Source of the DNA: a virus | Length of the DNA stretch: 46,515 nt | Direction: 5' to 3' (one strand) | UHGV virus genome: UHGV-0824613 | Shown: positions 15,418 through 17,537 of the stretch, piece by piece | How the letters are laid out: each line of letters starts with the position of its first letter | How positions within the stretch are numbered: position 1 is the stretch's first letter | Notes under the pieces: generated by a model | What the model saw: only the letters and a program-made list of their open reading frames with translations | What the model was told of the DNA's origin: nothing | Databases searched by the model: none | Position numbers and translations under genes: made by a program

Positions 15418-15815
15418 TGCCAGCGAAATTAAGAGGCATTCGCCAAGCCGTAGAAAGAACATCGCAGATTGTGGATGAGATAATTGCCACGAAAGCTGTG
15501 CGCGCTCTGAAGTCAGCAACATACATCATCCGCACCGAATCAGCCACGTTGACGCCGATTGATACGTCGACACTGATTAACAGCCAGTTTGATACTGTGG
15601 AAGTTAGCGGAACTCGAATCACTGGCAAGGTTGGCTACTCTGCGAAATATGCGCTGTACGTCCACAATGCCAGTGGCAAACTTGCAGGTAAGCCGCGAAG
15701 CAATGGTAACGGCACGTATTGGAGTCCGGGAGGTGAACCGCAATTTCTTACCAAAGGGGCGCAGCGCACAAAAGACCTTGTTGATAGCGCGATTAAGAAG
15801 GAGATGACACTCTAA
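15417..15815 (+). CDS. HK97 gp10-like tail-component protein
   Basis: 132 aa; ...YSAKYALYVHNASGK... is typical of the HK97 gp10 family. ATGA-type coupling. Confidence 0.55.
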   Translation: MPAKLRGIRQAVERTSQIVDEIIATKAVRALKSATYIIRTESATLTPIDTSTLINSQFDTVEVSGTRITGKVGYSAKYALYVHNASGKLAGKPRSNGNGTYWSPGGEPQFLTKGAQRTKDLVDSAIKKEMTL

Positions 15816-16189
15816 TGAATATGCTTGAGCTGGTTGATGCATATCTTCAGGATGCCGGGTTGTATGACGGCTGGACTTCGCAGTTGCAGTTCTGGAATGA
15901 CACCGGAGACGGCAATGAGCAATTTATTGTCCTGCAATCCAATGGCGGCACACAGGTGATGGATGGCCTCGGTGGTGACTTCTATTTCTCGATGTATGTT
16001 GTTGGCAAACATGGGCAGTATAACGTGGCTGATGTTGATGCGAAGGCCAATGAGATTATCGAATACATCAAGACGCATCCGATTGATTCATGCGTTAACT
16101 ACATCCAGTTGCAGGCACCACTGGGAAGGCCGATGTTGACTGAAGAGAAACGGCCTGTGCATGAGTTGCTTTTGCGGGTTGTGAAATAA
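15815..16189 (+). CDS. putative tail completion/terminator protein
   Basis: 124 aa, last gene before the major tail protein region. Terminator 16195..16215. Confidence 0.5.
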   Translation: MNMLELVDAYLQDAGLYDGWTSQLQFWNDTGDGNEQFIVLQSNGGTQVMDGLGGDFYFSMYVVGKHGQYNVADVDAKANEIIEYIKTHPIDSCVNYIQLQAPLGRPMLTEEKRPVHELLLRVVK

Positions 16190-16310
16190 ATAAAGCCGCA
16201 TGAAGCGGCCTTATTGCTGGTTTAAGCATTGCCAGCGTGCTTTCTTAATATCCAGCCCCGTAACCCATACATACCCCTACATATGATTGCGATAATGCTG
16301 GATATTAAGT

Positions 16311-16440
16311 GTTGTGGCGACAGGAATCGAACCTGCTTCCATAGGTGCGCTGCCTATTGCAGTACGCGCGTCGGTCAGCTACATGACTAGTATTTTCACT
16401 GCCGTCTATCTGCTAGCTCGCCATTGAGCTTCACCACAAC
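16311..16440 (-). ncRNA. tRNA-like element (acceptor stem, D-arm and T-arm with TTCGATT loop; about 57-nt insertion; non-canonical)
   Basis: On the minus strand: 7-bp acceptor pairing GTTGTGG/CCACAAC, D-arm GCTC-AATGGC-GAGC, hairpin ATAGG-CAGCGCA-CCTAT, T-arm GCAGG-TTCGATT-CCTGT. Total about 128 nt and no U33, so not a canonical tRNA. Confidence 0.3.
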
Positions 16441-16511
16441 GGAAAGAGCACTGAACCTATGGCTATTGGATTTCACACTGGCTGATCAATTCCAGCGCGC
16501 CTCGCGGCCTC

Positions 16512-16536
16512 AATAACCAAGAGGAATCGAACCTCT
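16512..16536 (-). ncRNA. second tRNA-like T-arm/3'-acceptor fragment
   Basis: On the minus strand: AGAGG-TTCGATT-CCTCT followed by TGGTTAT. No matching 5' acceptor strand was found. Confidence 0.25.
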
Positions 16537-16820
16537 CAATGCTCTTACCTGTTGTGTTCCCTGACTTATTAATCACACCTCAGGGACGCAGTGCGCCGAA
16601 TTTGTTTACAAGGAATCGGAAGACCTTGCTGACTTACAGGCTATTACGCCGCCATCAGAACAACATCATCGTTTGCATTTATCTTTGTGGTCAGTTTCTA
16701 AAAAGTCCGCAAAGTCGCTCACGAAAACTATCTGAAATACAATCTACACCACAAAATAATCGCTGTCAACACCTGTGATATAATCACCACGTTAGCAGCT
16801 AACACAATTCGGAGATCGAA

Positions 16821-17537
16821 ATGGCTATTTGTGCAAATGATAAAGGCGTTCTGGTCGGTCGCATGACCCGACTGTTCCTTGCTGAAGGGTGCGGCGACGC
16901 AGTTCCGGATGCAGGCGACTGGAAGTATTTAGGCTCAACCACCAGTAAAGGCGTTGACTACTCGCCGCAGACCACTACGTCGGAAGCGGATACCGCTGGC
17001 GGCTTTGTTTCTACTCTCGTTACCAGCTCTGATATGACCATCAGTGCAGAGGTGGAAATCCGCAAGAATGACCCGAGCGATGAGTTTGGCTTCCATCGTC
17101 TTGTTGAGATTTACGCCACTGAACTGAAAGCTCGTCGCCAGCCTTCCCTGTGGGTGCGTCAGGTGACTGGTGCAACTATCGTTACCGCGTATTGCAACAT
17201 CACCAGCATCAGCTACGAAGGTGGCACGAACGATATCGTTACTGGTAGCCTTGAGTTTAAGGTTTACGATTCTGACAGCGTTACCGTAGAAAGCCTTGAA
17301 CCTCTGGCATTCACTACCGACCTGCAATCAACTGGCACGGCCGGAAGCCCGTTAACCGTTGCTGTTGAAGGTGGCGTTGCTCCTTACACTTATGTATGGC
17401 GCAAAGATGGCGTGGTTGTCGGCAGCGAATCTGGCGCATCTCTGGCAAGCCCTACCGCTGGCGTGTATACCGTCACGGTAACTGATTCATCTACCGACCC
17501 GGGAATTATCATCAGCACGGCGTGCACGGTATCCTGA
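16821..17537 (+). CDS. major tail protein with C-terminal Ig-like domain
   Basis: 238 aa. C-terminal Ig-like segment (...PLTVAVEGGVAPYTYVWRKDGVVVGSE...VYTVTVTD). Position upstream of the chaperone and TMP. Terminator 17541..17565. Confidence 0.75.
   Translation: MAICANDKGVLVGRMTRLFLAEGCGDAVPDAGDWKYLGSTTSKGVDYSPQTTTSEADTAGGFVSTLVTSSDMTISAEVEIRKNDPSDEFGFHRLVEIYATELKARRQPSLWVRQVTGATIVTAYCNITSISYEGGTNDIVTGSLEFKVYDSDSVTVESLEPLAFTTDLQSTGTAGSPLTVAVEGGVAPYTYVWRKDGVVVGSESGASLASPTAGVYTVTVTDSSTDPGIIISTACTVS

Follow-up and report, generated by a model that had tools for sequence, protein, structure and literature searches.

A minus-strand RNA gene with a putative tmRNA-derived message module and tRNA-like folds between tail genes of virus genome UHGV-0824613

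Transfer-messenger RNA (tmRNA) is regarded as one unit, in which an alanine-charged tRNA-like domain carries its own message; the known partial forms have lost the message and not the tRNA part. The tmRNA database papers of 2014 and 2025 include phage tmRNAs and forms without a coding sequence ("no CDS"); their pipelines need a tRNA-like domain, and a form consisting only of the coding sequence is not described there (PMC4131195, PMC11915505). According to passages in these two papers that cite Mao et al. (2009), a tmRNA of mycobacteriophage DS6A that consists only of the tRNA domain inhibits the tmRNA of Escherichia coli. A second group of described systems is formed by the small RNAs (sRNAs) STnc100 and PasD, which are expressed from the Q–holin region of prophages (bioRxiv 10.64898/2026.05.13.724894; PMC8550237). 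Both are described as Hfq-dependent base-pairing sRNAs with terminator ends; STnc100, a known prophage sRNA related to PasD, is functionally uncharacterized (bioRxiv 10.64898/2026.05.13.724894; PMC12370729). Here we describe a 630-bp gap (16190-16820) between tail-region genes in the virus genome UHGV-0824613, of which the whole stretch analyzed, 46,515 nucleotides (nt), is called the window. The gap is a single minus-strand non-coding RNA gene that extends from a promoter (16769-16741) to a terminator hairpin (16212-16184). The predicted transcript of about 550 nt (~16734 to ~16184) is a chain of three structured modules.

The first module is of tmRNA ancestry, and the second and third contain tRNA-like folds. 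Our preferred reading, to which we give an even chance, is that the gap comprises a tmRNA-derived message module, a spacer with a permuted tRNA-like fold, and a tRNA-like five-way junction (TLD1), and that this array acts on ribosome rescue. Covariation across dozens of homologues backs the message module, TLD1, and the spacer stems; the second T-arm domain, which is located in the spacer, rests on four homologues. The features of the message module are as follows:

16558..16733, minus strand: tmRNA-type mRNA-like module (sub-threshold Rfam matches and covariation in alignment A2)
16644..16676, minus strand: tag frame GCA AAC GAT GAT GTT GTT CTG ATG GCG GCG TAA (ANDDVVLMAA*), with resume codon GCA
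16596..16628, minus strand: H-type pseudoknot A, stem 1 CAAGG/CCUUG (16628-16624/16613-16609), stem 2 CCGA/UCGG (16619-16616/16599-16596), with compensatory changes in both stems
16558..16595, minus strand: pseudoknot B, stem 1 CGCAC/GUGUG (16595-16591/16578-16574), stem 2 UCCCUGA/UCAGGGA (16586-16580/16564-16558), with covariation in stem 1

The module opens with AGAUAGUUUUCG, a sequence similar to the D-loop in permuted phage tmRNAs, and continues with the tag frame, preceded by AAAGAUAAAU (resume context AUAAAU-GCA), and the two pseudoknots; it is devoid of an alanine-accepting tRNA-like domain. This upstream third of the gap (16733-16558), with its tmRNA-type message domain and tag frame, was missed in the original prediction, which had listed 16611-16626 (AGGTCTTCCGATTCCT) as a third T-loop-like sequence. 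That stretch is not a T-loop; it is the core of pseudoknot A, which is supported by covariation.

A scan of viral contigs for the resume context yielded about 95 family loci. All 95 have exactly 10 codons and then a stop, and 25 distinct tag sequences occur among them. The encoded tags (e.g., ANDDVVLMAA, ANEEMYLAVA, ANDEQFLAVA, ANDDLMLMAA, ANDNTFLAVA, ANEERFLMAA) have the N-terminus AN[DE] and the hydrophobic C-terminus ..L[AM][AV]A. Single-base differences between tags are synonymous in 8 of 16 cases (23% expected), and 11 of 16 are at codon position 3. In Gamaleyavirus Bp4, the peptide is identical, with two synonymous changes, while the flanks have diverged. Apparently, the tag frame is under selection.

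The fold of the module was analyzed in an alignment of 38 diverse homologues (A2). Of the helices that were tested jointly, one holds the stop codon of the tag, two are the stems of pseudoknot A, and the last is stem 1 of pseudoknot B. In this set, 97.9% of the positions are paired and 12 of the 18 pairs show compensatory changes, while slid controls reach 45% at most. Pair 159-177 in stem 1 of pseudoknot B covaries (CG, UA, GC), and stem 2 is found as GCCC/GGGC, UCCCUGA/UCAGGGA, GGCGGGAG/CUCCCGCC, and AUCC/GGAU among the homologues. A by-eye search of A2 for an upstream pseudoknot (PK1) in the message module revealed no pairing that is preserved across variants.

The same alignment bears on the notion that the gap codes for a protein of 79 amino acids on the plus strand (16539..16778). 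An ATG-started open reading frame (ORF) is indeed present, but only 9 of the 38 homologues are free of stops along the module in this frame, the alignment beneath it has indels of 1, 5, and 8 nt, and its sequence is of low complexity. The ORF is spurious, in agreement with the original prediction, which had called it implausible; we rejected the protein-coding reading, the chance of which is virtually nil.

Standard detectors, which the original prediction had proposed as a check, do not call the element. ARAGORN reported no tRNA and no tmRNA in the whole 46.5-kb window, Rfam gave no match in the window at gathering thresholds, and the Rfam tRNA family (RF00005) had no match in the gap even at E ≤ 10. 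Below these thresholds, a permissive Rfam scan of the gap returned weak matches to tmRNA_permuted (27 bits) and beta_tmRNA (18 bits), both with E=0.0018 and both on the minus strand. The two matches center on AUAAAU GCA AAC GAU GAU GUU GUU CUG AUG GCG GCG UAA, and consistent Rfam similarity is limited to tmRNA_permuted, beta_tmRNA, and tmRNA. Sub-threshold tmRNA scores were also obtained for the relatives in Felixounavirus TP1 (29.2), Kuttervirus Se-J (22.3), and Gamaleyavirus Bp4 (33.4).

Bona fide permuted tmRNAs (Rfam 100-115 bits, ARAGORN "tmRNA*"; e.g., L384 and L115) occur in environmental phage contigs that these scans also returned. In them, an outer helix and a T arm are followed by CAcCUCC-ACCA, a loop, GGGGnUG, and AAUGGUUUCGAC, after which come the outer helix again, a hairpin, and a tag introduced by AUAAAUGCAAACGA; the latter sequence is common to the window module and these genuine permuted tmRNAs. 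In the permuted tmRNA of L384, the tag is ANDERFLMAA, and the D-loop, ACUAGUUUCGAC, is similar to the start of the enterophage module (GAUAGUUUUCGUC). With permuted tmRNAs (RF04321 tmRNA_permuted, RF01850 beta_tmRNA), the window shares the resume context AUAAAU-GCA-AAC-GA, the ten-codon tag with a hydrophobic or Ala end, the stop codon in a helix, the pseudoknots after the tag, and the D-loop-like module start. It differs from them in lacking a GGGGnnG acceptor strand, G3·U70, and ACCA. The enterophage module looks like the coding piece of a permuted phage tmRNA minus its acceptor strand. It resembles the DS6A and "no CDS" forms in being a phage-borne partial tmRNA, and the DS6A form is, in the passages mentioned above, proposed to interfere with the host tmRNA. 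However, DS6A has kept the tRNA-like domain and lost the tag frame, whereas the window has kept the tag module and has no alanine-accepting domain, which makes it the mirror image. Bona fide permuted tmRNAs were seen in L115, L225, L133, L384, and many of L374-L488 (mostly marine and freshwater viral contigs), with tags ending in ..ALAA, ..RLAA, and ..LMAA.

The E. coli tag is AANDENYALAA. SspB uses its N-terminal AAND.. and the aromatic or hydrophobic position 7, while ClpX uses a hydrophobic end such as ..AA or ..VA. The phage tags are like the E. coli tag in the N-terminal AAND.., in an aromatic or hydrophobic position 7, and in a hydrophobic ..AA or ..VA end. Because of these frame features, with tag ends of the SspB/ClpX type, we favor the view that the tag frame may really be translated on stalled ribosomes, to which we give a chance clearly below even.

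Between the message module and TLD1 lies the spacer, with the following features:

16435..16556, minus strand: spacer ("leader") hairpin, with outer stem CACAAC (16556-16551)/GUUGUG (16440-16435)
16520..16536, minus strand: second T arm AGAGG-UUCGAUU-CCUCU, with an exact T-loop motif and a compensatory change from A-U to C-G in L095
16453..16519, minus strand: candidate circularly permuted acceptor-like helix, UGGUUAUUG (16519-16511)/CAAUAGCCA (16468-16460), seen in four homologues

The inner stem of the spacer pairs UAAGAGCAUU (16547-16538) with AGUGCUCUUU (16452-16443). In related arrays, one spacer hairpin of variable loop content precedes each module, and its outer stem is formed by an upstream 6-mer and the first six bases of the module that follows (GUUGUG for TLD1, GAUAGU for the message module). 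We compared 26 distinct hairpins with their loops treated as N (alignment A3); these were selected for at least 9 of 10 inner-stem pairs, with the outer stem unfiltered. In the outer stem, pairing reaches 94.9%, and 4 of the 6 pairs show compensatory changes; for the inner stem, on which the hairpins had been pre-selected, 7 of 10 pairs are compensatory. G·U pairs in the spacer are compatible with the minus strand only. A boxA/nut reading of AGUGCUCUU was rejected, as the stem covaries to non-boxA sequences (e.g., UAAUGGCA/UGCCAUUA).

Within the spacer loop of the window, the order is T arm, UGGUUAUUG, a 42-nt insert that holds the hairpin CGCUGG..CCAGUG (16497-16476), CAAUAGCCA, and the D-loop-like UAGGUUC (16459-16453). 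From the outer helix onward, the elements follow one another as in permuted tmRNA genes (T arm, one acceptor strand, loop, the other acceptor strand, D-loop), and the second T-arm domain can be read as a circularly permuted tRNA-like fold. It differs from permuted tmRNA in being placed downstream, not upstream, of the tag module. Among its four homologues, L095 keeps all helices, the T stem by a single compensatory change and the 9-bp stem by three, and phage STGO-35-1 shows one mismatch as well as a mutation in the T loop.

The third module, TLD1, contains the other T arm:

16311..16440, minus strand: TLD1, five-way junction of about 130 nt (covariation and RNAalifold)
16370..16406, minus strand: long arm of TLD1, with a 20-nt apical loop that contains the palindrome ACUAGU (16391-16386); 8 of 9 helix pairs compensatory
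16320..16336, minus strand: first T arm GCAGG-UUCGAUU-CCUGU (helix 7: 100% paired, 3 of 5 pairs compensatory)

The two minus-strand T-arm signatures of the original prediction are real: an exact GGTTCGATTCC occurs twice in the window, at 16333-16323 and 16533-16523. They are 200 nt apart, rather than the 198 bp first given. With one mismatch permitted, shuffled sequences have 0.58 matches; two exact copies on the same strand within 200 nt are far above chance. The 7-bp acceptor pairing that had been described (GTTGTGG, 16440-16434, with CCACAAC, 16317-16311) is found in place and extends to 9 bp (GTTGTGGTG, 16440-16432, with CGCCACAAC, 16319-16311). Equally present are the D arm with its GG loop (GCTC-AATGGC-GAGC, 16429-16416), the 5-bp hairpin ATAGG-CAGCGCA-CCTAT (16357-16341), and the 4-nt variable loop GGAA that follows it. 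An integron attC-like reading of CACAAC/GTTGTGG was rejected, since the core-site consensus is not matched and the G·U pairs indicate RNA.

TLD1 consists of the 9-bp acceptor stem, the D arm, a 4-bp stem leading into the 9-bp long arm, the 5-bp hairpin with its 7-nt loop, and the T arm. The long arm belongs to the stretch of about 57 nt (16413-16359) that had been taken for an insertion. The stretch exists, but it is a conserved, structured arm with a covarying helix and a covarying loop. The hexamer in its apical loop (columns 52-57 of alignment A1) varies and is nevertheless always a perfect palindrome (ACTAGT, TCTAGA, GCTAGC, TCGCGA, ACCGGT). As a zero-loop hairpin is impossible, the palindrome points to an intermolecular contact or a protein-binding site, which suggests loop-loop dimerization or a site for a dimeric protein.

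Homologues of TLD1 were collected by a D-arm-motif scan of viral contigs, which gave 90 true loci with 39 distinct sequences, 22 of which, being diverse, were aligned (A1). In these 22, 96.4% of the pair cells are standard, and 21 of 39 pairs show compensatory changes. None of 500 shuffles reaches the observed values, and sliding the partners by 1-3 columns gives at most 50%. RNAalifold independently returns the same helices, and the G·U pairs fit the minus strand only. The T loop UUCGAUU and the D loop AAUGGC are invariant in the 22 homologues, the invariance of the D arm being in part due to the search pattern. The evidence for TLD1 is comparative, not energetic. The stems are thus conserved with compensatory changes in related phages, and the original prediction stands in this respect, as does its option of a structured non-coding RNA that uses tRNA-like modules, with folds kept by covariation and strand specificity seen from the G·U pairs.

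TLD1 is like class II tRNAs in its acceptor stacked on a canonical T arm, in its D arm with GG, and in an extra arm that separates the long arm from the T arm; in addition, most copies have a 3' CCA. The 3' tail in the window is ACUU, without CCA, while CCA is encoded at most five bases after the stem in 76 of the 90 viral loci. Unlike tRNAs, TLD1 has a 9-bp acceptor, no anticodon loop, and a 9-bp long arm with a 20-nt loop and a covarying palindrome, and it is not detected by ARAGORN or Rfam tRNA. These features also decide on two degenerate or intron-containing tRNA genes, an option raised in the original prediction. The canonical T loops, the D arm with GG, and the acceptor helix would fit such genes, and one GenBank record names 58 nt of a homologous element "tRNA-Ser". 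However, neither detector finds a tRNA, the acceptor is too long, and the sole 7-nt loop, CAGCGCA, has A33 and C37 in a position where U33 had already been noted as absent. Moreover, the supposed intron is a covarying helix that is present in 92 phage records, and the second T arm is part of a permuted fold without free ends. We consider tRNA genes very improbable.

The hexamer GUUGUG (16440-16435) has two partners that are both supported by covariation, CACAAC in the spacer and CCACAAC in TLD1. These stems compete, and we therefore expect sequential folding, processing, or a switch. In the preferred reading, host tRNA-processing enzymes (RNase P, 3' trimming, CCA addition) would cut the chain at its tRNA-like helices, which we infer because the message module of Felixounavirus TP1 lies within a tRNA cluster, between tRNA-Ile and tRNA-Arg, and because most TLD1 copies carry CCA. 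Related arrays in TP1, Bp4, L116, and L070 are interleaved with bona fide tRNAs like phage tRNA clusters, from which the window differs in having no genuine tRNA.

Processing might also be all there is to the array: the tRNA-like helices and spacers would then be cleavage and stability signals only (for RNase P, RNase III, or RNase E) which free sRNAs that work through base pairing or by binding proteins, and the likeness to tmRNA would reflect ancestry without a rescue function. Modules are indeed freely shuffled between conserved closing stems, and the outer spacer stem competes with the TLD1 acceptor stem as a processing intermediate would. A sister module with STnc100 architecture, GGUGUGGUG-AA-UGCGCAGGCUGAUGCGC...GCCGGAGAUCAGCGCCGGC-CACCACA (L192:1118-1331, L112:3255-3345), points the same way: it shares the closing stem GUGGUG-AA...CACCAC, and the L192 copy has 48.7 bits against RF02076 (STnc100), which reaches the gathering score, while STnc100 and PasD are sRNAs expressed from the Q–holin region of prophages. 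With these, the arrays in prophages share a genomic position between antiterminator Q and the lysis genes as well as the closing motif ..UGGUG-AA..hairpin...hairpin-CACCA.., with sister modules matching RF02076. STnc100 and PasD may therefore belong to the same superfamily of modules closed by acceptor-like stems. However, the window itself has no STnc100-like module (no RF02076 match in 16100-16900 at E ≤ 10), and TLD1, unlike STnc100 and PasD, has true D and T arms. Furthermore, processing signals leave unexplained why conservation across unrelated phage families extends to the tag frame with its resume context and to the two pseudoknots. We thus regard this alternative as unlikely. A link to the sRNAs PasA–D was rejected: the partial PasA and PasD1 sequences (PMC8550237 supplements) are unlike the window modules, and only the STnc100-type architecture of the sister module is similar.

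The whole gap is found in the Salmonella phages STGO-35-1 and Akira (86-89% identity over 96% of its length). The relatives of the window are Skatevirus-type phages, which carry the element between the head-tail and major tail genes. Much more widespread is the message module, which matches 626 phage records, 185 of them over at least 80% of the query, none being annotated; by host, Salmonella (214), Escherichia (190), and Klebsiella (107) lead the matches, followed by others. Carriers include Skatevirus-like phages, HK620, Felixounavirus, Kuttervirus, and Gamaleyavirus. TLD1 was found in 92 phage records. Part of the gap, mainly the message module, is also present in 283 of 5,426 complete E. 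coli genomes (megablast, ~93% identity), where the copies are inside prophages, between antiterminator Q and the holin gene. The message module has spread horizontally among E. coli prophages and among hundreds of phages that infect E. coli, Salmonella, Klebsiella, and related bacteria. A scan of genome contigs with AAAGATAAATGCNAAYGA gave only chance matches among the matches listed and is uninformative on bacterial donors. In the prophages of E. coli 55989 and O26:H11 (L001:5810-6601; L112:2625-3698), the same modular arrays follow directly after the pR'/tR' terminator, in the Q–holin gaps of lambdoid/P22-like prophages; there, a mini-helix GUUGUGG-CAG-CACAAC, similar to a capped acceptor stem, precedes the message module, and PGAP has annotated nothing.

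This distribution argues against a remnant of a tRNA or tmRNA attachment site (an attP/attB fragment), which had been suggested in the original prediction. tRNA and ssrA genes are frequent integration sites, which would make such a remnant plausible. But in Skatevirus-type relatives the element is enclosed by head-tail and tail genes, and the E. coli copies, which are about 93% identical to the phage element, are prophage-internal and downstream of Q, neither at host tRNA genes nor at prophage ends. In addition, the tag differs from the E. coli ANDENYALAA, the message part is not the part of tmRNA that is duplicated at att sites, and covariation reflects selection on the RNA fold. We give hardly any weight to this explanation.

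In the preferred reading, the processed products would act on tmRNA–SmpB ribosome rescue. The tag frame would be translated on stalled ribosomes after delivery by a non-canonical tRNA-like partner, so that rescued proteins would receive a phage-type tag. In its most far-reaching version, which we find doubtful, the enterophage module would represent an "orphan" message domain of tmRNA and thereby the first derivative of this RNA in which a tag frame is selected while an alanyl tRNA-like domain is absent. Its tRNA-like partners would be non-canonical and would be used through a new circular permutation (with the downstream T-arm hairpin) or in trans. Ribosome rescue and the tagging of stalled proteins would then be open to rewriting or hijacking by unrelated enterobacterial phages (Skatevirus-like, lambdoid and P22-like, Felixounavirus, Kuttervirus, N4-like).

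Several findings weigh against the preferred reading. The Rfam scores of 27 and 18 bits are well below the gathering thresholds of 47 and 84, as are those of the family as a whole (18-33 bits), and ARAGORN, which detects the genuine permuted tmRNAs in control loci, calls none in the window or the enterophage loci. The synonymous-site signal in the tag is small and comes from related sequences, and the 3' half of the tag is also constrained by RNA pairing. Taken alone, TLD1 does not have an unusually stable minimum-free-energy fold (z = -1.08). The modules are separable: the message module is absent from 84 of 90 TLD1 loci, and a T-loop motif is found within 700 nt downstream in 50 of 92 message-module loci and not in the other 42 (background 0.087 per kb); therefore, no fixed tRNA-like partner is evident. 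Alanine identity (G3·U70, ACCA) was looked for in all registers of both tRNA-like domains and was not found. The 9-bp stem of TLD1 has U3-A70, without G3·U70 or A73-CCA, and the second T-arm helix has A3-U70 and U73, without CCA, A73, or G3·U70. With G3·U70, A73-CCA, and an encoded CCA absent from both domains, AlaRS is not expected to charge either of them, which argues against canonical delivery.

The missing alanine identity also keeps alive the possibility of a decoy, in which an uncharged RNA would bind SmpB (perhaps also S1 and stalled ribosomes) through the elbows formed by T arm and D-loop and through its message-like domain, and would thereby block host trans-translation. In favor of a decoy, the window has neither alanine identity nor CCA, and in some relatives (L016) the spacer loop is reduced to a T arm with UUUCGAC directly after it, without an acceptor helix. 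It would also have a precedent in the inhibition of the E. coli tmRNA by the DS6A form, as mentioned in the database papers (PMC4131195, PMC11915505). However, a decoy has no need for an open frame of 10 codons, for degron-like peptide ends, or for variation at third positions, and many message-module loci have no T-loop nearby. We consider the decoy rather unlikely, though worth keeping in mind.

Array modules may allow phages to interfere with ribosome rescue. A message part that is conserved and apparently selected, without a recognizable alanine acceptor, has been missed by standard annotation tools. If it is translated, phages would own a degradation-tag system, and there would be a new delivery route for a tmRNA message; if it is a decoy, it would be an RNA inhibitor of ribosome rescue. 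Either outcome links phage infection, tRNA-like RNAs, and trans-translation. The array also explains a recurrent "empty" gap in the genomes of therapeutic-type phages; the message module and TLD1, at least, can each be defined as an RNA family and are candidates for Rfam.

The signals of the transcription unit are:

16741..16769, minus strand: sigma-70-type promoter, TTGACA (16769-16764), 17-nt spacer, TAGATT (16746-16741)
16244..16309, minus strand: candidate 3' hairpin CUUAAUAUCCAGC...GCUGGAUAUUAAG with a 13-bp stem, read from the sequence
16184..16212, minus strand: terminator-like hairpin GCCGC-UUCAU-GCGGC followed by UUUAUUUAUUU, likewise a sequence reading

The promoter scored 10/12 in the promoter scan, and the transcription start predicted from it (~16734-16733) is the first base of the message module. 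Hexamers and spacing are preserved in the diverged relatives L062, L070, L118, L002, and L035, regardless of which module is first downstream. Five nt upstream of the -35 hexamer is an operator-like palindrome, GTGAT-tat-ATCAC (16775-16787, minus strand), which is preserved in the Skatevirus-like relatives L062, L070, and L002. This conservation suggests that a DNA-binding protein may control the RNA gene.

The 13-bp hairpin (16309-16244) follows TLD1 and is retained in L070 with one G·U change. The hairpin at 16212-16184 was reported by the terminator scan for the plus strand only. Since the plus-strand ORF 15815..16189, a head-tail gene that borders the gap, also ends there, it is probably a bidirectional terminator that serves this ORF as well as the RNA unit. 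On the other side, the gap is bordered by 16821..17537, the major tail protein gene according to the annotation of a homologous Skatevirus record. Close relatives have a genuine tRNA-Met(CAU) between TLD1 (or a sister module) and the terminator (L070:12372-12448, L200:9464-9540). With 0 tRNAs reported by ARAGORN, the window has either lost it or never gained it.

Further elements were noted in other phages. The pR'–holin gap of phage phi80 (L229:4100-4225) contains an element of ~105 nt that is closed by TTTGTGG...CCACAAAG, followed by AGGTAAAGCC, and that loosely resembles the closing stem and spacer start of the window; it might be the old "phi80-induced M3 RNA", an RNase P substrate. In Bp4 (L373:1020-1091), ARAGORN reports a "tRNA-Ala(cgc)" about 110 nt upstream of the message module, which is absent from the GenBank annotation; its acceptor has U3-A70 instead of G3·U70 and one mismatch. 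Kuttervirus Se-J (L372:324-2008) has ~1.7 kb without an annotated gene, including a message module with the tag ANDNTFLAVA. This module is followed by several long hairpins with T-arm-like GGGUUCGAnUCCC, one of which continues with ..ACGGCUCCAC.., reminiscent of the 3' end of tmRNA.

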